Sequence record: PQ493298 | DNA: 64,000 nt | Origin: Escherichia phage EPIMAM01 | Strand: one strand, 5' to 3' | Shown here: positions 29,870 through 64,000 of the stretch, in pieces | How the letters are laid out: the number at the start of each line of letters is the position of its first letter | How positions within the stretch are numbered: the stretch's first letter is position 1 | Program-made: the position numbers and the translations under genes | Notes under the pieces: model-generated | What the model saw: only the letters and a program-made list of their open reading frames with translations | The model's database searches: none | Told to the model about the DNA's origin: nothing

Positions 29870-30135
29870 TGTTCATCCTTCAGAGTTTGATTTACAGCTC
29901 TATTATAAATCAATTCATCATTAAGCTCAGTTAAAGACCTATGATATGTAGTTCTAACTTTATTTCCTTGCATCCAGTGCTTGACGTAAATGAAACCTTG
30001 CTCTACACATTTTTTAAAAATTCGTTCATCTTTTTGAGCTCGGAATTCTGGATTGCATCTAAAAAATTGATTTACGTGACCGTAATCACGTGTAGTATTA
30101 CCTTCATTTTCATAAATAGTGTGAACGACAAACAT
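29866..30135 (-). CDS. hypothetical protein (30.1 position)
   Basis: 89 aa ORF coupled to ligase start. Confidence 0.55.
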   Translation of the reverse strand: MFVVHTIYENEGNTTRDYGHVNQFFRCNPEFRAQKDERIFKKCVEQGFIYVKHWMQGNKVRTTYHRSLTELNDELIYNRAVNQTLKDEQ

Positions 30136-30998
30136 TAGAATGCTCCTTGGAAAATATTATCACCACTAGTAAATCTATTAAAATACCCTGCATCACCAGG
30201 CTTAGTATAACTCCACGTATGGAATGGATTCATATGATACGGGTGTGTATAATATGGATTATATGGATGTGTATAATATGGATTATACGGATTAAATCCA
30301 GGAGTTCTCCAGGTAGTGTTCCAAGGAAAAGAATCGTTTTTAACCATCTTCTCAATTAAATCTTTTATAGCTTTTTCACTATCAAAACTTTCTTTATTTT
30401 CCTTCGGCGAAAAAAGCTTATTTTCTACATCATTCCATGTATAAACTCGCTGGGCAGTTTTTGGAATATTGTCACGCTCTCCTCGAGCCATCCAATAAAC
30501 TGGAACATTTAATATTTCACTCGCATGATCGCAGTGGTGAGCGAGATCGTCAATATAACAAATTACGTTATATTTCTCTTTTGCCTTTTTGAATAACTCT
30601 TCTTTTGAAGAATCATGACCACACATCATTACTTCTGAGAAGGCACCAGGAAAAAGAGCATTCAAATTAAATTGACGATTCAACAGAGCGTCAATAGAAT
30701 CACCCAATGCTGTGACAGCTACAAAATTATAATCTTCTTTTAATTTGTTAATTACACACAGGGCATCTTTATATGGAGACAAGTAACGAATAAAATCTGA
30801 TCGATTGTATTTTTCAATTAGCTTGACACCAAGTTCTTCATCACAATTAAAGAGTTTACCTGGAGAAATAAATTTCTCATCTTGGATCATTTTTAAAATA
30901 TGTTCTAACGGAAGATTATATTTCTGAGCAAAATAAGGAAGACCTGATTGCCAGCTTAAACATACTCCATCAATATCAGTTAAAATAGTAGGCTTCAT
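30135..30998 (-). CDS. HAD-like hydrolase with Tyr/Pro-rich repetitive C-terminus (30.2 position)
   Basis: N-terminal ILTDIDGV resembles HAD motif I (DxDG); C-terminal NPYNPYYTHPY repeats. Confidence 0.65.
   Translation of the reverse strand: MKPTILTDIDGVCLSWQSGLPYFAQKYNLPLEHILKMIQDEKFISPGKLFNCDEELGVKLIEKYNRSDFIRYLSPYKDALCVINKLKEDYNFVAVTALGDSIDALLNRQFNLNALFPGAFSEVMMCGHDSSKEELFKKAKEKYNVICYIDDLAHHCDHASEILNVPVYWMARGERDNIPKTAQRVYTWNDVENKLFSPKENKESFDSEKAIKDLIEKMVKNDSFPWNTTWRTPGFNPYNPYYTHPYNPYYTHPYHMNPFHTWSYTKPGDAGYFNRFTSGDNIFQGAF
30244..30291 (-). repeat. two tandem 24-nt units (one mismatch) inside the HAD-like gene
   Basis: TGTGTATAATATGGATTATATGGA then TGTGTATAATATGGATTATACGGA on plus strand. 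Confidence 0.8.
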
Positions 30999-36694: not shown

Positions 36695-36887
36695 TTACCT
36701 CACATAATTTTCTTCAAGCCAATCAATAACATCCAACGCATTATCAAAAGTTGAACCATCTACTTTGTCTTCTGTTTCATAATCAAGAACATCTAAGCCT
36801 ACTCTTCCATCAACAATAGGCCATAAACAAAATAGATATTTCTTTTCTTTTTCAATTTTATCACAAAGCCGATAAATCTTTTCTATG

Positions 36888-50653: not shown

Positions 50654-51571
50654 TCAAAATTCATTAATGCTATTAGTTAATTTAGAAAGACCCGCTTTTA
50701 CAAAATATGAATAAATTTTGCCACGCGGTGGTAATTTATATGAATTATAGTAATTCACAATGTTTGAAGCAATATTATCAGGAATATAATCAAAATCAAT
50801 TAGAACTAAATTTTCTTTATATCGATTATATTCAGATTCAGTGAGAAGCACCTTAGCTTGCTCGCGGTCATTAGCAATAGCTTCAACAATAGAGGTTTTC
50901 ATTGAAGGAGTTCGTTCACCTTCAACTCTGGTAAACCAAAAGTCAGATCGTACTTTAACTGAAGCAACGTTATCCTTTTTGTCGCCTTTAAGGATTTTAG
51001 TCATACAGTCAATTTCAGCAGAACCGCTTTTAATTTTAACCCATTTCTTGTGCATCGGTGACCATTGCTTAACATTTGGGTATTTGTGAAGTTGAGTAAA
51101 GTCACCATCCGACGAAATGATTAAAATCTTGTGTCCTTCTAAAGAGAACTTTTTAACAAGAACAGCGATATGGTCATCTGCTTCATACTTATCAATATCC
51201 ATAACGATGTATGGCATATAAGCTTTCAATTCATCTATAACTTTATGACTGGATTCAAAATAACCTTCCCAGTCCCAAGTAGATTCTTCTCGTGCTTTTC
51301 CACGGTTTTTCTTATAATAATAAGCGAAATCACGACGCCAGTATCCAGATTTCGCGTTATCAATACACAATACAATTTTAGTGTATCCAAGAGTTTTTGC
51401 TTTTTTAACATTGAACTTAATTGAGTTCAATATCAAATGACGAACCATTGATAAATTAATTTTTTCTTTATCTGGGAAGTTTACCAGAGCAGTTGAAAGC
51501 GCAATCTGACTAAAGTCAATTAAGCAAATTCCTTCTTTGTAATCTTCATCCAGCATCATTTCTAAATCCAT
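50654..51571 (-). CDS. rnh: RNase H (5'-3' exonuclease, FEN-family)
   Basis: 305 aa from internal Met MDLEMM...; synteny. Confidence 0.9.
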   Translation of the reverse strand: MDLEMMLDEDYKEGICLIDFSQIALSTALVNFPDKEKINLSMVRHLILNSIKFNVKKAKTLGYTKIVLCIDNAKSGYWRRDFAYYYKKNRGKAREESTWDWEGYFESSHKVIDELKAYMPYIVMDIDKYEADDHIAVLVKKFSLEGHKILIISSDGDFTQLHKYPNVKQWSPMHKKWVKIKSGSAEIDCMTKILKGDKKDNVASVKVRSDFWFTRVEGERTPSMKTSIVEAIANDREQAKVLLTESEYNRYKENLVLIDFDYIPDNIASNIVNYYNSYKLPPRGKIYSYFVKAGLSKLTNSINEF

Positions 51572-51643
51572 ATGAACCTCGTTCAATTAGTGAGATTTCT
51601 ATTATATACTATCTAAATCTTAAAGTAAACAAGTATAAATACT

Positions 51644-51651
51644 TATTATTG
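51644..51651 (+). promoter_or_regulatory. late promoter box TATAAATA upstream of gene 34
   Basis: Exact TATAAATA 25 nt upstream of ATG 51676. Confidence 0.7.
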
Positions 51652-51675
51652 AAAACACAATAGGAGCCCGGGAGA

Positions 51676-54600
51676 ATGGCCGAGATTAAAAGAAAGTTCA
51701 GAGCAGAAGATGGTCTGGACGCAGGTGGCGATAAAATAATCAACGTAGCTTTAGCTGATCGTACCGTAGGAACTGACGGTGTTAACGTTGATTACTTAAT
51801 TCAAGAAAACACAGTTCAACAATATGATCCAACTCGTGGATATTTAAAAGATTTTGTAATCATTTATAATAATCGTTTTTGGGCAGCAACGGATAATATT
51901 CCAAAACCTGCTGGAAGTTTTAATAGAATTCGTTGGAAAGCATTACGTACTGATGCTGTATATACAACCGTATCATCTGGACCGTATCAATTAAAATCCG
52001 GAGAAGCAATTTCAGTAGATACATCAGTTGGTAATGACATTGAGTTTACTTTACCACCTTCTCCGCTCGATGGAGAAACAGTAATAATTCAAGATATCGG
52101 TGGAAAACCTGGTATAAATCAGGTTAAAATAAGTTCTTCAAATCAGAGCATTGTTAATTTTAGAGGTGAACAAGTACGTTCAGTTTTAATGACTCATCCA
52201 AAGTCACAGATGATATTCATTTTTAATAATCGTTTGTGGCAAATGTATGTTGCTGATTATAGCAGAGAAGCTGCAATTGTTACTCCATCGACTGCATATC
52301 AAGCACAATCTAATGATTTTATCGTGCGTAGATTTACTTCCGCAGCGCCGATTAATATTAAACTTCCGAGATTTGCTAATCATGGCGATATTATTAATTT
52401 CGTTGATTTAGATAAATTAAATCCACTTTATCATACAATTGTCACGACATATGATGAAACAACTTCAGTACAAGAAGTTGGAACTCATTCCATTGAAGGC
52501 CGTACATCGATTGACGGTTTCTTGATGTTTGATGATAGTGAAAAATTATGGAGATTGTTTGACGGGGATAGTAAAGCACGTTTACGCATTATAACGACTA
52601 ATTCAAACATTCGTCCAAATGAAGAAGTTATGGTATTTGGTGCGAATAATGGAACAACTCAAACAATTGAGCTTCAGCTTCCAACTAATATTTCTGTTGG
52701 TGATACTGTTAAAATTTCCATGAATTACATGAGAAAAGGACAAACAGTTAAAATCAAAGCTGCCGGTGAAGATAAAATTGCTTCTTCAGTTCAATTGCTG
52801 CAATTCCCAAAACGCTCAGAATATCCACCTGAAGCTGAATGGGTGACTGTTCAAGAATTAGTTTTTAACGGTGAAACTAATTATGTTCCAGTTTTACAGC
52901 TTGCTTATATTGAAGATTCTGACGGAAAATACTGGGTTGTACAGCAAAACGTTCCAACTGTTGAAAGAGTCGATTCTTTAAATAATTCTACTAGAGCAAG
53001 ATTAGGCGTAATTGCTTTAGCTACACAAGCCCAAGCTAACGTCGATTTAGAAAATTCTCCACAAAAAGAATTAGCAATTACTCCAGAAACATTAGCTAAC
53101 CGTACTGCTACAGAAACTCGTAGAGGTATCGCAAGAATAGCAACTACTGCTCAAGTAAATCAGAACACTACATTCTCTTTTGCTGATGACCTTATCATCA
53201 CTCCTAAAAAGCTGAATGAAAGAACTGCTACAGAAACTCGCAGAGGTGTTGCTGAAATTGCTACGCAGCAGGAAACTAATACAGGTACTGATGATACTAC
53301 AATCATCACTCCTAAAAAGCTTCAAGCTCGTCAAGGTTCTGAAACATTATCGGGTATTGTAACTTTTGTATCTACCGCAGGAGCTACTCCAGCCTCTAGT
53401 CGTGAATTAAATGGTACAAATGTTTATAATAAAAATACTAATAATTTAGTTGTTTCGCCTAAAGCACTGGATCAGTATAAAGCTACTCCAACGCAACAAG
53501 GTGCAGTAATTTTAGCAGTTGAAAGTGAAGTAATTGCTGGACAAAGCCAAGAAGGATGGGCAAATGCGGTTGTAACACCAGAAACGTTACATAAAAAGAC
53601 ATCAACTGATGGAAGAATTGGTTTAATTGAAATTGCTACGCAAAGCGAAGTTAATACAGGAACTGATTATACTCGCGCAGTCACTCCTAAAACTTTAAAT
53701 GACCGTAGAGCAACTGAAAGTTTAAGTGGTATAGCTGAAATTGCTACGCAAGTTGAATTCGACGCAGGCGTCGACGATACTCGTATCTCTACACCATTAA
53801 AAATTAAAACTAGATTTAATAGTACTGATCGTACTTCTGTTGTTGCTCTATCTGGATTAGTTGAATCAGGAACTCTCTGGGACCATTATACCCTTAATAT
53901 TCTTGAAGCAAATGAGACACAACGTGGTACACTTCGTGTAGCTACACAAGTTGAAGCTGCTGCAGGAAAATTAGATAATGTTTTAATAACTCCTAAAAAG
54001 CTTTTAGGTACTAAATCTACCGAATCGCAAGAAGGTGTTATTAAAGTTGCAACTCAGTCTGAAACCGTGACTGGAACGTCAGCAAATACTGCTGTATCTC
54101 CAAAAAATTTAAAATGGATTGTGCAGAGTGAACCTACTTGGGCAGCCACTCCAGCCATAAGAGGATTTGTTAAAACTTCATCCGGTTCAATTACATTCGT
54201 TGGTAATGATACAGCTGGTTCTACGCAGGACTTAGAGCTATACGAGAAAAATAGTTATGCAGTATCACCATATGAATTAAACCGTGTATTAGCAAATTAT
54301 TTGCCGTTAAAAGCAAAAGCTGCTGACGCAAATTTATTAGATGGTCTAGATTCATCTCAGTTCATTCGTAGGGATATTGCCCAGACAGTTAATGGTTCAC
54401 TAACCTTAACCAAACAAACGAACCTGAGTGCCCCTCTTGTATCATCTAGTACTGCTACGTTTGGTGGATCAGTTTCAGCAAATAGTACACTAACTATTTC
54501 TAATACTGGAACGGCAACTCAATTAATTTTTGAGAAAGGACCTCAAACTGGAACAAACCCGACTCAAACAATGACTGTAAAAGTGTGGGGAAATCAATTT

Positions 54601-55545
54601 AGCGGGGAGTCAGACACAACACGTTCTACTGTATTTGAAGTTAGTGATGAAACTTCTAGTCATTTTTATTCTCAGCGTAATAAAGCTGGTAATATAACAT
54701 TTAATATCAACGGTACAGTAACACCGATAAATGTGAATGCTTCAGGAACATTGAATGCGAATGGCGTTGCAACATTTGGTAATTCAGTCACTGCAACTGG
54801 TGAAATTATTTCTCGAAGCGCAAATGCTTTCCGTGCTATTAATGGAAATTACGGTTTCATTATTCGTAATGACGGGTCAGTAACGAATTTTATGCTTACT
54901 GCATCAGGCAATCAAACTGGTGGATTTAATGGATTGCGTCCATTGTCCATTAATAATCAATCTGGGCAGGTCACAATTGGTGAAAGCTTGATCATTGCTA
55001 AAGGTGCTACTATAAATTCAGGTGGTTTAACTGTTAACTCGAGAATTCGTTCTCAAGGTGTTAAAACATCTGATTTATATACCCGTGCGCCGACATCTGA
55101 TACTGTAGGATTCTGGTCAATCGATATTAATGATTCAGCCACTTATAACCAGTTCCCGGGTTATTTTAAAATGGTTGAAAAAACTAATGAAGTTACTGGA
55201 CTTCCATACTTAGAACGTGGCGAAGAAGTTAAATCTCCTGGTACATTGACTCAGTTTGGTAACACACTTGATTCACTTTACCAAGATTGGATTACTTATC
55301 CAACGACTCCAGAAGCACGTACCACTCGCTGGACACGTACATGGCAAAAAACTAAAAACTCTTGGTCAAGTTTTGTTCAGGTATTTGATGGAGGTAACCC
55401 TCCTCAACCTTCGGATATAGGAGCAATTCCATCTGATAATGGAATAATAGGTAATCTTACTATTCGTGATTTCTTACGAATTGGTAATGTTCGCATTATT
55501 CCTGACCCAGTGAATAAAACTGTTAAATTTGAATGGGTTGAATAA
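51676..55545 (+). CDS. 34: long tail fibre proximal subunit gp34
   Basis: 1289 aa, same length as T4 gp34; internal repeated ITPKKL...ATETRRG motifs. Confidence 0.95.
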   Translation: MAEIKRKFRAEDGLDAGGDKIINVALADRTVGTDGVNVDYLIQENTVQQYDPTRGYLKDFVIIYNNRFWAATDNIPKPAGSFNRIRWKALRTDAVYTTVSSGPYQLKSGEAISVDTSVGNDIEFTLPPSPLDGETVIIQDIGGKPGINQVKISSSNQSIVNFRGEQVRSVLMTHPKSQMIFIFNNRLWQMYVADYSREAAIVTPSTAYQAQSNDFIVRRFTSAAPINIKLPRFANHGDIINFVDLDKLNPLYHTIVTTYDETTSVQEVGTHSIEGRTSIDGFLMFDDSEKLWRLFDGDSKARLRIITTNSNIRPNEEVMVFGANNGTTQTIELQLPTNISVGDTVKISMNYMRKGQTVKIKAAGEDKIASSVQLLQFPKRSEYPPEAEWVTVQELVFNGETNYVPVLQLAYIEDSDGKYWVVQQNVPTVERVDSLNNSTRARLGVIALATQAQANVDLENSPQKELAITPETLANRTATETRRGIARIATTAQVNQNTTFSFADDLIITPKKLNERTATETRRGVAEIATQQETNTGTDDTTIITPKKLQARQGSETLSGIVTFVSTAGATPASSRELNGTNVYNKNTNNLVVSPKALDQYKATPTQQGAVILAVESEVIAGQSQEGWANAVVTPETLHKKTSTDGRIGLIEIATQSEVNTGTDYTRAVTPKTLNDRRATESLSGIAEIATQVEFDAGVDDTRISTPLKIKTRFNSTDRTSVVALSGLVESGTLWDHYTLNILEANETQRGTLRVATQVEAAAGKLDNVLITPKKLLGTKSTESQEGVIKVATQSETVTGTSANTAVSPKNLKWIVQSEPTWAATPAIRGFVKTSSGSITFVGNDTAGSTQDLELYEKNSYAVSPYELNRVLANYLPLKAKAADANLLDGLDSSQFIRRDIAQTVNGSLTLTKQTNLSAPLVSSSTATFGGSVSANSTLTISNTGTATQLIFEKGPQTGTNPTQTMTVKVWGNQFSGESDTTRSTVFEVSDETSSHFYSQRNKAGNITFNINGTVTPINVNASGTLNANGVATFGNSVTATGEIISRSANAFRAINGNYGFIIRNDGSVTNFMLTASGNQTGGFNGLRPLSINNQSGQVTIGESLIIAKGATINSGGLTVNSRIRSQGVKTSDLYTRAPTSDTVGFWSIDINDSATYNQFPGYFKMVEKTNEVTGLPYLERGEEVKSPGTLTQFGNTLDSLYQDWITYPTTPEARTTRWTRTWQKTKNSWSSFVQVFDGGNPPQPSDIGAIPSDNGIIGNLTIRDFLRIGNVRIIPDPVNKTVKFEWVE

Positions 55546-55553
55546 GAGGTATT

Positions 55554-56669
55554 ATGGAAAAATTTATGGCAGAGTTTGGACAAGGATATGTCCAAACGCC
55601 ATTTTTATCGGAAAGCAATTCAGTAAGATATAAAATAAGCATAGCGGGCTCTTGCCCGCTTTCTACTGCAGAGCCATATGTTAAATTTCAGGATAATCCC
55701 GTTGGAAATCAAACATTTAGTGCAGGTCTTCATTTAAGAGTTTTTGACCCTTCTACGGGAGCATTAGTTGATAGTAAGTCATATGCTTTTTCTGCTTCAA
55801 ACAATACAACATCTGCCGCTTTTGTCAGTTTTATGAATTCTTTGTCAAACAATAGACTTGTTGCTATATTAACTAGCGGAAAGGTTAATTTTCCTCCTGA
55901 AGTGGTATCTTGGTTAAGGGGAGCAGGAACTTCAGTTTTTCCATCAGATTCAGTATTGTCAAGATTTGACGTATCATATGCTGCTTTTTATACTTCTTCT
56001 AAAAGAGCTATTGCATTAGAGCATGTTAAACTAAGTAATAGAAAAAGCACAGATGATTATCAAACTATTTTAGATGTTGTATTTGATAGTTTAGAAGACG
56101 TCGGAGCTACGGGATTTCCTAAAAGAACATATGAAAGTGTCGAGCAATTTATGTCAGCGGTTGGTGGAACTAACAACGAAATTGCGCGATTGCCAACTTC
56201 AGCTGCTATAAGTAAACTATCTGATTATAATTTAATTCCTGGTGATGTTCTTTATCTTAAAGCACAGTTATATGCTGATGCTGATTTACTTGATCTTGGA
56301 ACTACAAATATATCTATCCGTTTTTATAATGCATCAAATGGATATATTTCTTCAACACAGGCTGAGTTTACTGGGCAAGCTGGGTCATGGGAATTAAAGG
56401 AAGATTATGTAGTTGTTCCTGAAAATGCAGTCGGATTTACTATATATGCGCAGAGAACTGCTCAAGCTGGTCAAGGCGGACTGAGGAATTTAAGCTTTTC
56501 TGAAGTATCAAGAAATGGCGGCATTTCAAAACCTGCCGAATTTGGCGTCAACGGTATTCGCGTTAATTATGTCTGTGAATCGGCTTCACCTCCAGATATA
56601 ATGGTACTTCCTACACAAGCCTCTTCTAAAACTGGCAAAGTGTTTGGGCAAGAATTTAGAGAAGTTTAA
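55554..56669 (+). CDS. 35: long tail fibre hinge connector gp35
   Basis: 371 aa; synteny. Confidence 0.9.
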   Translation: MEKFMAEFGQGYVQTPFLSESNSVRYKISIAGSCPLSTAEPYVKFQDNPVGNQTFSAGLHLRVFDPSTGALVDSKSYAFSASNNTTSAAFVSFMNSLSNNRLVAILTSGKVNFPPEVVSWLRGAGTSVFPSDSVLSRFDVSYAAFYTSSKRAIALEHVKLSNRKSTDDYQTILDVVFDSLEDVGATGFPKRTYESVEQFMSAVGGTNNEIARLPTSAAISKLSDYNLIPGDVLYLKAQLYADADLLDLGTTNISIRFYNASNGYISSTQAEFTGQAGSWELKEDYVVVPENAVGFTIYAQRTAQAGQGGLRNLSFSEVSRNGGISKPAEFGVNGIRVNYVCESASPPDIMVLPTQASSKTGKVFGQEFREV

Positions 56670-56675
56670 ACTGAG

Positions 56676-56693
56676 GGAGCCTTCGGGTTCCCT
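56676..56693 (+). terminator. stem-loop GGGAGCC-TTCG-GGTTCCC after gene 35
   Basis: Inverted repeat with one G-U pair, followed by T-run. Confidence 0.55.
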
Positions 56694-56700
56694 TTTTCTT

Positions 56701-56708
56701 TATAAATA
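56701..56708 (+). promoter_or_regulatory. late promoter box TATAAATA upstream of gene 36
   Basis: Exact TATAAATA 24 nt upstream of ATG 56732. Confidence 0.7.
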
Positions 56709-56731
56709 ATATTAAAATAAAGGGGCATATA

Positions 56732-57382
56732 ATGGCTGATTTAAAAGTAGGTTCAACTGTGGGTGGATCTGTCATTTGGCATCAAGGAAATTTTCCATTG
56801 AATTCAGCCGGTGACGATGTACTCTACAAATCATTTAAAATATATTCAGAATATAATAAACCACAGGCAGCTGATAACGATTTCGTTTCTAAAGCTAATG
56901 GTGGTACTTACACCGGTCCAATTACTATTAATTACGGGGTAAATAGTTATCTTCAATTAAGTAATAATGAAACCCCCATTCGAATTCGTTCTGGTGGCGG
57001 TACCGGCAATACTCTTGTAGTTGGCGGCTCTTCTGGCGGTATTAGTTTTAGACCTGCAGGTAGTGAAATCACTACTGGACAAATTACTATTACGCCAGAA
57101 GGTTTGACAACATTTACCAGGGCTGTAACGGCTCCATCTGTAACTGTTACATCTACTCCTTCAGCAGCATCTGATGTTACTCGTAAAGATTATGTCGATG
57201 GAGCAATAAATACTGTTACGGCAAATGCGAATTCTAGAGTTTTGCGTAAAGGTGACACCATGACAGGTAATTTAACAGCGCCAAACTTTTTCTCGCAGAA
57301 TCCTGCATCTCAACCCTCGCATGTTCCACGATTTGACCAAATCGTGATTAAGGATTCTGTTCAAGATTTCGGCTATTATTAA
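56732..57382 (+). CDS. 36: long tail fibre distal connector gp36
   Basis: 216 aa; synteny. Confidence 0.9.
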
Positions 57383-57390
57383 GAGGACTT

Positions 57391-60375
57391 ATGGCTACTT
57401 TAAAACAAATACAATTTAAAAGAAGCAAAACTGCAGGTCAACGTCCTGCTGCTTCAGTATTAGCCGAAGGTGAATTGGCTATTAATTTAAAAGATAAAAC
57501 AATTTTCACAAAAGATGACTCAGGCAGTGTTATAGAATTAGGTTTAAAATATGGAGGAACAATTGATGGTTCTTTAACTGTTAATGGAAGTATAATTGGA
57601 AATTTAACAGGTAACGCTGCAACTGCAACGAAATTGCAAACACCTAGGAAAATTAATGGTATATCTTTTGATGGGTCAAAGGACATTACCTTAACTCCAT
57701 CTGACATAAATGTCAATAGCACAACGTTTATAAAAAATAACGGCGAATTACCGGTTGATGCTAATTTAGATGAGTATGGGCCTGTTGAAGAATATCTTGG
57801 AGTTTGGTCGAAAGAAACTTCAACCAACGCTCAACCAGCAAATAAATTTCCAGAAGAAAATGCTGTAGGTGTGCTAGAAGTATTTGTGGCCGGTCAATTT
57901 GCTGGTACTCAGAGATATACAACCAGATACGGAAATGTTTATATTCGTTCCTTGACTGCTACATGGAACGGAGTAAATGGTCCGTGGAGTGTGTGGCGAA
58001 ATATTCAATCCGGTACTCGTCCACTGTCAACAACAATTGATCTTAATGATCTAGGAGGTGCTGAACACTTTGGCTTGTGGAGGAATAGTTCAAATTCCAT
58101 TGCTACCTTTGACAGAAATTTCCCAGAAGAGGGGTCGTCCGCTCAAGGTCTTTTGGAAGTATATGAAGGTGGAAACTATTCTCGTACGCAAAGATATACA
58201 ACCAGATTTGGTGTTGTTTATACTCGCTGTCTTACTGCTGCGTGGAATGCTTCTGCGCCTAAATGGGGACCGTGGCAACAAGTCGGTAATGTCACACCGG
58301 CGACTTTCTATGACGGAGACCTGAATGATTTTAAAACTCCTGGGTTATATAATATTTTAGGTACTGATGCCGTTATTAACTGTCCTACAGGTGAAGGTTT
58401 ACCAGCCGTTATTGTTGGTTTGCTGGAAGTTAAACAGCGTGCTTCTGGTGGTGCTATTTTCCAAAAATTTACTACTGCCGGAACAGGTACAACTACTCGC
58501 GGACGTATTTTTGAGCGTGCATACACTAATGGTGTTTGGGGTACATGGAACGAAGTATATACATCTTATTCTCTGCCAATTACTTTGGGTATGGGTGGTA
58601 TTAAAGCTCAATTAGCGGAGTTAGATTGGCAAGCCTTTGATTTTGTCCCTGGTAGTATGTTTAGCGTTCCTTTGAATAAAATAAAGAACATGCCAGCAAA
58701 TATGGATTGGGGGACGATTGATGGAAACTTGGTTATGTTTTCTGTCGGTCCTAGCGAACATACTAGCACAGGGCGTACTGTTCAGGTTTGGCGTGGTACT
58801 GTATCCCAGACAAACTACCGTTATTTTGTCGTTCGTGTATTCGGTAATTCAGGAAATAGAACTTGCACAGTTCGTCGTGTTGTTCTTGAAGATGGTCGCC
58901 ACAAATGGACAGCGCAGCAAGATTTTAATGGCGCAGTTAACTTCGGTGCTCCTACCAATTTTAACTCTACTGTTAACCTTAATAACACTACCACTTTTAA
59001 AACAGAAGTTAAATTCCGCTCATTGAATGCATTTAAAATGTACGGCGGTAAGTTTGGCGCAATTTTCCGTAATGATGGAGAGAGTCTTTATATTCTTTCC
59101 ACCGACGAAGATGATCAAGATGGAAACTTTAATACAAATAGACCTTTCCGTTATGAATTGAGAACTGGTGATGTTACTTTAGGTGGTACTAGTGGTGCTA
59201 ACGTTTTAAAATTAAAACGTGATTCTCTCACCGCATTTTTTGGTGGTGATATTAATATAAAAGGCTTGATGACTTTTGACGCTGGACGTTTAGGATCACG
59301 AGATTATTTTAAATTTAACCATTGGGGTGATAGTAATAATGCGCGTGATAACATTATTCAGTTAGAAGACAGCAAAGGAGTTCATTTTTCTACTGAACGT
59401 ACTTTAGCGACTGGTGCAATTAAAACTAAATTCTTTGGTGAAGTTGAATCCGATGGTAGATTGATTATTAAACGTCCGGGTGATTCTATTGTATTATCAG
59501 CACCTGCTAGTAATTCTTTGCATATTCGTGGTGACGTAGACGGGACTAATAACTGGTATATTGGTAAGGGTGGTGATGATAATGGATTAGCGTTCTATAG
59601 TTATGCTACTAATGCTGGTGTATACATTACAAACGCAGGAGATATCACGCTAAGTCCAAAAGGCGTCGAAATGGCTCATGTTAATAACGTTCGATTATAT
59701 GTTCATGGTGAACGTTGGACCGCTAGTCAACCAGGTGATTGGGGCAACCAATGGCGAGTAGAAGCGCCAATATTCGTCGATCATGGTTATGTTGGACCAG
59801 ATAGTTATTATCCAATTATTAAAGGAAGAAGTGTAGTCACCAATCAAGGGTTTGTAACTGCCGTCGATCTTGGTATTCGTCGTATCCCTAATAATTGGGG
59901 ACAAGCAATTATTCGTGTTGGATCTGCGGAGGCTTCTCCTGATGCTGGTCATCCTAACGCGATATTCGAGTTCCACTATGATGGGTTCTTTTATGCACCA
60001 GGAAATGGAAGTTTTAATGATGTGTATATTCGTTCCGATGGTCGTCTTAAGATTAATAAAAAAGAGCTAGAAAACGGAGCGGTTGAAAAAGTTTGCCGAC
60101 TGAAAGTTTATACTTACGATAAAGTTAAGTCTATTAAAGACCGTAGTGTTATTAAACATGAAGTTGGTATTATTGCGCAGGATCTTGAAAAGGAATTGCC
60201 AGAAGCTGTATCTAAAGTTGAAGTTGATGGATCTGATGTTCTGACAATTTCTAACTCTGCTGTGAATGCTCTTTTAATTAAGGCCATTCAGGAAATGAGC
60301 GAAGAAATTAAAGAATTGAAAACACCTTTCTTCACTAAAATTGCTCGTAAAATTAGCAATTATTTTAAATTCTAA
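57391..60375 (+). CDS. 37: long tail fibre distal subunit gp37 with C-terminal intramolecular chaperone domain
   Basis: 994 aa; synteny; C-terminal ~113 aa begin SDGRLKINK and contain [15 protein letters not shown] and [17 protein letters not shown]. Confidence 0.92.
60034..60372 (+). other. predicted auto-cleaving intramolecular chaperone (peptidase S74-like) domain of gp37
   Basis: Motifs [14 protein letters not shown] and LLIKAIQE read in translation. Confidence 0.7.
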
Positions 60376-60381
60376 CAACAA

Positions 60382-60394
60382 GGGGCTTTGCCCC
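60382..60394 (+). terminator. stem-loop GGGGC-TTTG-CCCC between genes 37 and 38
   Basis: Inverted repeat directly after gene 37 stop. Confidence 0.45.
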
Positions 60395-60407
60395 TTTGGA
60401 GAAAATT

Positions 60408-61335
60408 ATGGCAGTAGTTGGTGTTCCTGGTTGGATTGGAAGTTCATCCGTAAATGAAACAGGACAACGATGGATGAGTCAAGCGGCTGGTCAATTAAGA
60501 TTGGGTGTTCCTTGCTGGATGAGTCAATTTGCAGGTCGCTCAAGAGAAATTATTCACACACTTGGAGCAGACCATAACTTCAATGGTCAATGGTTCCGAG
60601 ATAGATGTTTTGAGGCAGGTAGTGCACCTATAGTGTTTAATATCACCGGAAATTTGGTATCATATTCTAGAGATGTTCCTTTATTCTTCATGTATGGAGA
60701 TACACCAAATGAATATGTTCAGTTGAATATTAGCGGTGGAGCTCATATGTGGGGCAGAGGTGGACAAGGTGGATGGACTCATTCTGGTGGGGATGGTAAT
60801 GGTCAACAGGGTGGGCATTGTATTCAAAATGACATTGGTGGTCGATTAAGAATTAATAATGGTGGAGTAATTTGTGGCGGTGGCGGCGGTGGCGGCGGTA
60901 TCGCTTCTCGTCCTCACTCTGGTGCAAACTGGAAAGATATTGGTGGCGGTGGAGGAAGACCATTTGGCCCAGGAGGTGGCGGTGGTTATTCAGGAGGCGC
61001 TGCTTCTTGGCGGCGGTGGCGGCGGTATCGCTTCTCGTCCTCACTCTGGTGCAAACTGGAAAGATATTGGTGGCGGTGGAGGAAGACCATTTGGCCCAGG
61101 AGGTGGCGGTGGTTATTCAGGAGGCGCTGCTTCTTACGATGGCCCAGGAGGTGGTTATAATTATGGTAATGCTCACTCCGGTCAGGGTGGTGATGCTGGT
61201 GCAAATGGACAAAATGCCTGGTATGATGGCGGTAAAGTACTAAAAGTCGGCGCTGGCGGCGCTGCTGGTTATGCCGTCATAGGATCAGCACCAACATGGC
61301 AAAATGTTGGAATAATATATGGTCCAAGAGTATAA
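60408..61335 (+). pseudogene. 38: T2-type gp38 receptor-binding adhesin, frame broken by 127-bp tandem duplication
   Basis: ATG at 60408 ([11 protein letters not shown]...) with GGAG SD; glycine-rich motifs; upstream frame stops at 61160, C-terminal part continues in +1 frame to 61335. Confidence 0.8.
60882..61135 (+). repeat. perfect direct tandem duplication, 2 x 127 bp
   Basis: Copy 1 60882-61008 and copy 2 61009-61135 identical at every position on manual comparison. Confidence 0.9.
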
Positions 61336-61366
61336 TTTTGAATAAATATCCTTAAAAGGAGGGTCT

Positions 61367-62023
61367 ATGGCAGCACCTAGAATATCATTTTCGCCCTCTG
61401 ATATTCTGTTTGGTGTTCTAGATCGCTTGTTCAAAGATAACGCTACCGGGAAAGTTCTTGCTTCCCGGGTAGCTGTCGTAATTCTTTTGTTTATAATGGC
61501 GATTGTTTGGTATAGGGGAGATAGTTTCTTTGAGTACTATAAGCAATCAAAGTATGAAACATACAGCGAAATTATTGAAAAGGAAAGAAATGCACGCTTT
61601 GAATCTGTCGCCCTGGAACAACTCCAGATAGTTCATATATCATCTGAGGCAGACTTTAGTGCGGTGTATTCTTTCCGCCCTAAAAACTTAAACTATTTTG
61701 TTGATATTATAGCATACGAAGGAAAACTACCTTCAACAATAAGTGAAAAATCACTTGGAGGATATCCTGTTGATAAAACTATGGATGAATATGCAGTTCA
61801 TTTAAATGGACGTCATTATTATTCAAACTCAAAATTTGCTTTTTTACCAACTAAAAAGCCTACTCCCGAAATAAATTACATGTACAGTTGTCCATATTTT
61901 AATTTGGATAATATCTATGCTGGAACAATAACCATGTACTGGTATAGAAATGATCATATAAGTAATGACCGCCTTGAATCAATATGTGCTCAGGCGGCCA
62001 GAATATTAGGAAGGGCTAAATAA
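61367..62023 (+). CDS. t: holin T
   Basis: 218 aa, one N-terminal transmembrane segment and large C-terminal domain; same length as T4 T. Confidence 0.92.
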   Translation: MAAPRISFSPSDILFGVLDRLFKDNATGKVLASRVAVVILLFIMAIVWYRGDSFFEYYKQSKYETYSEIIEKERNARFESVALEQLQIVHISSEADFSAVYSFRPKNLNYFVDIIAYEGKLPSTISEKSLGGYPVDKTMDEYAVHLNGRHYYSNSKFAFLPTKKPTPEINYMYSCPYFNLDNIYAGTITMYWYRNDHISNDRLESICAQAARILGRAK

Positions 62024-62296
62024 TTATTTGTTCGTATACATCTCTAGATATCGATATACACCCTCAAAACCCTCGTTGAATTCGTCGATGAGGGTTTTCT
62101 TATCTTCTTGAGTTAATTCAGAAACAATTTTACGGAATGAATTCTGATTTAACTTTCTACCTTCATGCGTTACTCCAATCTCATTCAGAAATGCAATAAA
62201 ATTAGCGCGATTCTCAACAATATCTTCTCTGGAAAATTTAATCAAAATAGACGCAACAGTAATAATTTCACGAACTGTATCAATATTTTTATTCAT
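62024..62296 (-). CDS. asiA: anti-sigma70 factor AsiA
   Basis: 90 aa; matches remembered T4 AsiA; convergent with t. Confidence 0.92.
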   Translation of the reverse strand: MNKNIDTVREIITVASILIKFSREDIVENRANFIAFLNEIGVTHEGRKLNQNSFRKIVSELTQEDKKTLIDEFNEGFEGVYRYLEMYTNK

Positions 62297-62308
62297 TAAC
62301 TATACCAC

Positions 62309-62461
62309 TCAATTAGTTGACTTTGTTATAATATCATCAGACGCTTGATTTGTAAACTGGTCTGTGGTATTTTCTTCAAAAATTTTTTCTACGAATTCCT
62401 TGAACGACTTACGTTCCTGAGCTACATTATGCTCGATTACTTTTTCAAGATTATGACTCAT
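62309..62461 (-). CDS. small acidic protein, not in ORF track
   Basis: Hand-translated 50 aa ORF (MSHNLEKVIEHN...); ATGA overlap with arn-like stop. Confidence 0.4.
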   Translation of the reverse strand: MSHNLEKVIEHNVAQERKSFKEFVEKIFEENTTDQFTNQASDDIITKSTN

Positions 62462-62736
62462 TCGAAATAATCTTCAATTTCATAATCAAGGACATAAATC
62501 ATTATAGTTTTTAATACATCATCAATACTTTTTCCTGGAGCTGGAATTACGTAAAAATATCCCGCCTTTGAGTTATCTTTATAAGTTCCAATCAAGAAAT
62601 CATTATTCCCAAGATGTAGTTCTTCAACTAATTCATTAACAATTGAGTGGTATAAATTTGGTAGAAACTTGTATAGCTTTTCTAGAATATCAATTTTGAT
62701 TGTGTATTGAACCACAGATTGAGAATCAATAATCAT
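62458..62736 (-). CDS. arn: Arn-like anti-restriction protein (by length and position)
   Basis: 92 aa acidic protein upstream of asiA, as in T4 order t-asiA-arn. Confidence 0.65.
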   Translation of the reverse strand: MIIDSQSVVQYTIKIDILEKLYKFLPNLYHSIVNELVEELHLGNNDFLIGTYKDNSKAGYFYVIPAPGKSIDDVLKTIMIYVLDYEIEDYFE

Positions 62737-62813
62737 AGACCTTCCCCTTATGTTTCTGTTTGCGATTAGATTCTTTAAACGCTTTCTTCTTATCCTTATG
62801 GACAGAAGCTTTA

Positions 62814-63038
62814 TTAAAATTGTGTTTTGCGACTAAATTGTTCATAGTGCTGAATTACCTCTCTCAAACACTTGCATGTGAATGAAAACTTTTTAGCTAC
62901 ACCACATTCAAATATATGTTCTCTTAAATCACGTGTGTCAGTATATCCCATCTCAACAATAAAATGTCTTATTAGATTTTTATCTTTATCATTGAGAGAA
63001 TTAAAATAATCGGATTTTGAATTAATTTCCCTGGCCAA
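62814..63038 (-). CDS. hypothetical protein
   Basis: 74 aa ORF. Confidence 0.45.
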   Translation of the reverse strand: MAREINSKSDYFNSLNDKDKNLIRHFIVEMGYTDTRDLREHIFECGVAKKFSFTCKCLREVIQHYEQFSRKTQF

Positions 63039-63318
63039 ATTGAATAACCTTTAGTTGACGTTTTAGTTCTTTTATCATTTCTTCGTTCATCGCAATATAA
63101 AGATCGCGTAAAGTAGGTTTTAGCATTCCATTTACTGGAGAACTAAATGGACATACATAATCTTTTCCTACGAGCTTTTTGGTGAATTCCATATCACAGA
63201 ACTGAAATGCCGGTTCATTGGCATAAATTCCCCAATTAGATGACATCATTTTATTGGCATATTCCAACGCCTGGATTTGATTCTTAATTCCATCAATTTG
63301 AAACTTTTTAATATTCAT
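63022..63318 (-). CDS. hypothetical protein
   Basis: 98 aa ORF. Confidence 0.5.
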   Translation of the reverse strand: MNIKKFQIDGIKNQIQALEYANKMMSSNWGIYANEPAFQFCDMEFTKKLVGKDYVCPFSSPVNGMLKPTLRDLYIAMNEEMIKELKRQLKVIQFGQGN

Positions 63319-63779
63319 TAGTAAAGGTCCTCAGAGTAAAGTTCTTTTTCACTACCACCGCGTTCAATACGTACTTGTCCGGCGTAAGTTGCAATAATCA
63401 TTGCTTCTTCACGTGTCCAGTAATTGCTATACTGATCAATAAACCCTTGGTCATCATCACAAACTTGCTGAGTAACTAATTGAGGTTTAACTACATCTAA
63501 AACTTCTGCCATATCTTTAGAATAATGACGAGCACCTGGAATAACAAGAGTTCGTCCATCTTTTAATTTAAAACGGTTGGCGGCACAAACAATTCGTCGT
63601 TGATACTTTTGGTTTTCATCCCAGTATGCGGTCTGCCAACAGATTTCAGGAACTTCTTTCAGAATATCTTCTTCTGTGCATTTATAACCATGTGCTTTAA
63701 ATTTTTCAACAAGACTTTCTGGAGTTTCACGAGATAAAGGAACATTCAGCATTTTTAAACGATTAATAAATGGGTTCAT
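63318..63779 (-). CDS. hypothetical protein
   Basis: 153 aa ORF, ATGA-coupled to downstream ORF. Confidence 0.55.
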
Positions 63780-63982
63780 TTAAACCATCCTTTAATACGC
63801 TGCCACAAAGTTTTCTGTTGAGCTTTGTTAACACCAATTGAGCGAATAACTGGTTGAGATTCCTGGAATTCTTTATAATCAGCAAGGTAAATTTCGTAAG
63901 CTGCATCCGTAAATGAACTTATCGCCGCCATAAAATTATTGCGAATACCTACTGGTGCATCTTTACTTTCACGAATAATCAT
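63776..63982 (-). CDS. hypothetical protein
   Basis: 68 aa ORF near window edge. Confidence 0.45.
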
Positions 63983-64000
63983 GTATTTACCAGTCTTAAT

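Follow-up and report, generated by a model that had tools for sequence, protein, structure and literature searches.

A perfect 127-bp tandem duplication in the gp38 adhesin gene of Escherichia phage EPIMAM01 is very probably an untrimmed assembly overlap

In the genome record of Escherichia phage EPIMAM01 (PQ493298), the gene for the tail-fibre adhesin gp38 is broken by a frameshift at a perfect tandem duplication. The locus raises the question of whether the phage carries the duplication, or whether the second copy entered the sequence when the genome was assembled and finished. A preliminary description of the same DNA had offered both possibilities, namely a reversible adsorption-off variant and an assembly artefact of a low-complexity GGC/GGT region. 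We analysed a stretch of 64,000 nucleotides of the record, referred to as the window; all coordinates are positions in it, and the features of the locus are collected in Table 1.

Table 1. Features at and around the gp38 locus
Feature	Position	Strand	Remarks
Gene 37, distal long-tail-fibre subunit, 994 aa, directly 5′ of gp38	57391..60375	+	Pfam Gp34_trimer and Peptidase_S74
gp38 as read in the window	60408..61160	+	200 native residues, 50 out-of-frame residues, stop
Copy 1 of the 127-bp unit	60881..61007	+	from the final base of codon 158 through codon 200; encodes residues 159-200
Copy 2 of the 127-bp unit (extra, frame-shifting)	61008..61134	+	100% identical to copy 1
Novel junction, unit end joined to unit start	60992..61024	+	...GCTGCTTCT/TGGCGGCGG...; microhomology 1 bp (T)
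Copy-to-copy junction, longer context			...GGAGGCGCTGCTTCT/TGGCGGCGGTGGCGG...
Single-copy order if the extra copy is an artefact			TTTGTGGCGG, then one unit, then directly TACGATGGCCC
True 3′ end of gp38 (...IIYGPRV)	61135..61335	+	+1 frame relative to the ATG, stop 61333-61335
Gene t (holin)	61367..62023	+	Pfam PF11031 Phage_holin_T, E = 2e-117; holin in the annotation of relatives

Over 19 kb the window is 98.7% identical to phage LF73P3, and its identity to several other phages is about 95%; judging from these matches it is from a Tequatrovirus, a T2/T6-like phage. Genes 37, 38 and t follow one another in the same order as in Escherichia phage PBM-1 and other records, and gene 37 is collinear with the coding sequence located 5′ of gp38 in PBM-1. 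Residues 882-940 of gp37 match the Peptidase_S74 'chaperone of endosialidase' domain (E = 1.7e-10), which suggests a self-cleaving intramolecular chaperone at the tip of the fibre, the place where gp38 docks.

The duplication itself is not in doubt at the level of the deposited letters. A repeat search returned the two copies listed in Table 1, in direct orientation, without a spacer and at 100% identity, and Tandem Repeats Finder reported positions 60881-61135 with a period of 127, 2.0 copies, 100% matches and 0 indels. When the sequence was scanned directly, the run of matches at period 127 extended over 128 positions, which leaves a 1-bp ambiguity in the phase of the unit. The copy boundaries proposed previously, 60882-61008 and 61009-61135, are therefore an equally valid phasing, and the 127-bp perfect tandem duplication that they delimit is present according to both programs. 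A perfect repeat of 127 nucleotides cannot have arisen by chance. No other large perfect tandem repeat occurs in the 64-kb window, and this one is internal, with at least 2.9 kb of sequence downstream. The unit has a G+C content of 60%, against 36% for the window, and its start falls within a 9-bp-periodic GGCGGTGGC run; the GGN repeats here amount to 17-nt imperfect copies only. Elsewhere in the window, a minus-strand open reading frame of 287 aa (30135-30998) contains a tandem repeat of 24 bp at 30237-30292 (2.3 copies, 90% matches). With a period divisible by three, this repeat would encode eight repeated residues in frame.

Because 127 is not a multiple of three, the duplicated gp38 gene loses its frame. 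Translation from the ATG at 60408, the start annotated in PBM-1, gives WRRWRRYRF... for 50 codons after residue 200 and ends at the stop codon 61158-61160. The native C-terminus, YDGPGGG...IIYGPRV, runs on in the +1 frame to its own stop; it is identical to the C-terminus of PBM-1 gp38 and aligns to the C-termini of PDB entries 9v85 and 6f45. Our translation thus agrees with the preliminary description, which had recognised the frameshift, the stop at 61160 and the real C-terminus in the +1 frame to 61335. An exact-protein look-up found none of the gp37 (994 aa) and truncated gp38 sequences (250 aa from the ATG, 254 aa from a TTG) on record.

Deletion of one copy from the sequence yielded an intact gp38 of 266 aa. 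This protein matched the Pfam profile PF05268 (GP38) from position 1 to 218 of 218 (E = 1.4e-68) and PF21721 (Gp38_N) from position 1 to 40 of 40 (E = 3.2e-19), whereas gp38 as written in the window matched PF21721 at residues 1-42 and PF05268 only to profile position 152 of 218. The one-copy protein also matched the solved structures of a GFP-gp38 fusion (PDB 9v85, E = 3.4e-72) and of the S16 receptor recognition protein (PDB 6f45 chain D, E = 2.4e-49, residues 5-263). By these matches the one-copy gene is a typical member of the gp38 adhesin family (PF05268/PF21721). The assignment of the gene to gp38, which had been made from the letters alone, is therefore borne out by the profiles, the structures and the gene order, and removal of one copy does restore an uninterrupted adhesin that fits both profiles at full length. 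Its length had been put at about 305 aa; the actual figure of 266 aa is that of the product of the 801-nt PBM-1 gene, and it lies in the range of 256-270 aa that holds for almost all family members in a collection of 5.8 billion proteins.

The one-copy gene shares with gp38 of the T2/T6/S16 type a length of 266 aa, an N-terminal attachment domain, glycine-rich motifs (GRM) alternating with hypervariable segments (HVS), a conserved C-terminal ...PTWQNVG.IYGPRV and the gene order 37-38-t. It differs from them in that the gene in the window is split by the extra 127 bp, and in carrying S167 and K176 in HVS2. When the unit was placed on the HVS ranges of a 266-aa reference gp38 (PMC12032242), it spanned GRM2, HVS2, GRM3 and the start of HVS3, so that its earlier assignment to the glycine-rich receptor-contact region was correct.

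The duplicated gene might be functional as it stands. An open +1 frame extends over 60874-61335, and a +1 ribosomal frameshift in the second copy, before 61160, would reach the native C-terminus; alternatively, the two reading frames could be expressed separately. Either arrangement would give an adhesin with an extra GRM-HVS module. We regard this as exceedingly improbable. The relatives inspected are all single-copy, the family keeps to 256-270 aa with no conservation hinting at a programmed event, and there is no slippery-site support. Moreover, every GRM and HVS of T6 gp38 is required (PMC3157838), which suggests that the fold has little tolerance for alterations. Programmed frameshifting and a split gene were rejected, as the arrangement was found in none of the relatives inspected.

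The gp38 locus was compared with a phage collection, in which 568 records matched and 117 covered most of the locus. The closest record at this locus, among the matches listed, was Escherichia phage PBM-1 (PV029540.1), at 99.6% identity. All 40 of the phage records among the matches listed aligned over about 892-894 nt of the 1021-nt query, corresponding to one copy, and the full-length relatives inspected each have one copy. Alignment of the window to PBM-1 fell into two blocks, 57382-61008 and 61008-64000, in which 128 PBM-1 bases were used twice and no other gaps occurred. A scan for other assembly damage around the site, covering 12.7 kb against PBM-1 and about 39 kb against LF73P3, found no further indels relative to PBM-1 in 51291-64000, the duplication being the sole one in that interval. 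On this alignment one additional unit has been inserted cleanly, and the lesion comprises no other change. Complete E. coli genomes gave only two partial matches of about 85%, both chromosomal and annotated as receptor-recognizing protein, and these were set aside as irrelevant.

Two observations were made on the reference phages themselves. PV029540.1 is labelled 'complete genome' at only 121,301 bp and is without about 45 kb that are present in the window (5929-51290), from the prohead scaffold genes to gene 34, the flanks being joined directly at 36814/36815. The record looks incomplete or mis-joined, or the phage has a very large deletion. LF73P3 (OZ035756.1), otherwise 98.6% identical to the window, gave no megablast match to the 3′ end of gene 37 (59443-60243), and in the first 500 nt of gp38 its identity dropped to 88.6%. 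To judge from the alignment, its difference at 59443-60901 is the usual mosaic replacement of an adhesin module between close T-even phages.

The restored 266-aa gp38 is 99% identical to that of PBM-1, from which it differs at two residues (S167Y and K176Q). The two genes have only two nucleotide differences over their whole length, both non-synonymous and both in the receptor-contact loop. The variant codons in HVS2 are located at 60906-60908 and 60933-60935, and are repeated in copy 2 at 61033-61035 and 61060-61062. The combination S167 and K176 sets the window apart from eight of eight aligned relatives; seven of these (PBM-1 and six others) have Y167 and Q176 (IAYR.HSGA.WQDI), and T6 is divergent there. 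From the position of these substitutions, the S167/K176 allele looks like a host-range variant. A 50-mer specific for the HVS2 allele of the window had 0 matches among the viral contigs of IMG/VR, and thus no single-copy twin was found there.

We then considered the sequence at which the copies meet. The right endpoint, GCTTCT/TACGAT (AAS/YDG), sits outside the GGN repeats, and the microhomology is 1 bp. An arbitrary contig end therefore fits better than recombination between glycine-codon motifs, which was rejected on these two grounds. The junction 33-mer had 0 exact matches in IMG/VR viral contigs, JGI metagenome contigs and GTDB genome contigs. A 100-nt query centred on the junction was never contiguous in the ten phage records among the matches listed, in which it aligned as two pieces inside a single unit of 127-128 bp. 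A literature search for tandem duplications in gp38 found nothing relevant.

The length of the repeat is the decisive clue to its origin. SPAdes accepts 127 as its largest k-mer, and uses it as the final k for long paired reads. T4-like genomes are packaged by a headful mechanism, and their DNA is circularly permuted and terminally redundant. Short reads from such DNA would assemble as a closed cycle, which SPAdes would put out as a linear contig ending in the same k bases with which it starts, with k up to 127. If that contig were given a conventional start by rotation, or its ends were joined again or wrapped around, with the overlap left untrimmed, two identical 127-mers would come to lie next to each other inside the sequence. 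Should the old contig ends have met inside gene 38, a normal 266-aa adhesin would appear to be split by a frameshift. For T4-like genomes, re-orientation to the T4 convention is common practice. With its start in the region of the tail sheath gene and gp38 at about 60 kb, the window has what we take to be this orientation, which would suit a re-oriented record.

End repeats of this kind have been described. In SPAdes contigs of circular or permuted phages the ends overlap by 127 bp, the k-mer size, and this overlap is treated as an artefact that has to be cut off (PMC5923482, PMC7372960, PMC12007190); a Shigella phage with a circularly permuted genome, assembled with k = 127, is described in similar terms (PMC6853846). 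The gp38 repeat resembles these overlaps in its length of 127 bp, its 100% identity, its direct orientation and the type of phage, which would assemble as a circle; its period is exactly 127, and the copies are contiguous without an indel. It differs in location, the SPAdes overlap being found at the two ends of a contig whereas the gp38 copies are adjacent and internal, and this position requires an additional step of rotation or joining. The exact agreement with the SPAdes maximum k, the restoration of the gene on deletion of one copy and the single copy in relatives all argue for an artefact. We infer, with the choice of assembler and the rotation as part of the inference, that the duplication is very probably an untrimmed 127-bp SPAdes overlap left in place after rotation, a finishing artefact.

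An artefact of a different kind could be a mis-assembly of the low-complexity GGC/GGT sequence, a bubble between two haplotypes, or a join or wrap-around unrelated to SPAdes. The start of the unit in the GGCGGTGGC run and its high G+C content are in keeping with the first of these, and a mixture of strains is conceivable, as the closest relatives differ at two positions in HVS2. The GGN repeats are imperfect and 17 nt long, however, far below typical read or k-mer lengths, and slippage in a GGC/GGT run was rejected as it does not account for a 127-bp unit. Two haplotypes placed in tandem were likewise rejected, the copies being identical, the S167 and K176 codons included. The exact length of 127 also goes unexplained unless the graph was built with k = 127. 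An artefact of this second kind is thus very unlikely. Of the two earlier proposals the artefact is thus favoured, but its cause is likely to be another than low complexity, as the unit is just as long as the SPAdes maximum k of 127.

It remains to weigh the possibility that the phage really carries a very recent tandem duplication in gene 38, which would be an adsorption-defective null allele revertible by homologous recombination between the copies. The repeat is present in the sequence, its copies are identical, as a recent event predicts, and both carry the window-specific S167 and K176. Tandem duplications are known to arise and to be resolved in T-even phages, some of them in frame within the gp37 adhesin of T4, and a homology of 127 bp would permit reversion. 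A length of 127 bp could also, in principle, be a coincidence. On the other side, the length is precisely that of the SPAdes k and there is no reason for 127 otherwise; the duplication shifts the frame and costs the adhesin its last 66 residues; its junction has a 1-bp microhomology and a right endpoint outside the GRM; and this junction was not found in the listed phage records, IMG/VR, the JGI metagenomes or the GTDB genomes. We consider a real duplication very improbable.

A known parallel would be in T4. Tetart et al. reportedly described, in 1996, in-frame duplications of His boxes in the C-terminal part of gp37, formed between short repeated motifs, that extend the host range. Like the repeat in gp38, these are tandem duplications in the part of a T-even tail-fibre adhesin that recognises the receptor. 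The gp37 duplications are in frame and extend the host range, whereas that in gp38 is out of frame, has a microhomology of 1 bp and would destroy the adhesin.

The effect of such a truncation can be judged from T6. Gene 38 amber mutants of this phage constructed by Trojet et al., with the amber codon just upstream of GRM3 or GRM5, produce normal-looking virions that do not adsorb and form no plaques (PMC3157838). Truncation after residue 200 falls between these two positions. As comparable truncations of T6 gp38 abolish plaques, a stock grown by propagation could not have the duplicated allele as its consensus, and by analogy this allele should be lethal for plaque formation. A duplication that is real in a substantial fraction of the population could serve as a reversible off-switch of the adhesin, resembling phase variation in a lytic phage, in which the out-of-frame copy would silence adsorption and T4-type recombination between the copies would remove the duplicate at high frequency. 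We rate this as most improbable, and the reversible adsorption-off variant suggested previously is disfavoured both by the length, equal to the SPAdes k, and by the failure of comparable T6 gp38 truncations to form plaques.

The agreement between a repeat length and k may also bear on other genomes. Identical 5′ and 3′ 'LTRs' of exactly 127 bp have been reported as the terminal redundancy of phage G in a preprint (bioRxiv 10.1101/2024.12.16.628780); having a length equal to the k-mer overlap, they may, by analogy with the gp38 repeat, be the same SPAdes artefact. A repeat of exactly 127 bp (or 55, 77 or 99) is a cheap flag for untrimmed SPAdes overlaps in re-oriented genomes of phages, plasmids and organelles.

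If the duplication were real, it would constitute an unusual reversible adsorption switch, and the evidence is strongly against this. If it is an artefact, as is very probably the case, the matter is chiefly one of quality control: a gene on which host range depends has a false frameshift on record, automatic annotation would report the adhesin as truncated or split, and predictions of receptor or host range based on gp38 would misjudge this phage. The remedy would be to remove one 127-bp copy, which gives back the 266-aa gp38.
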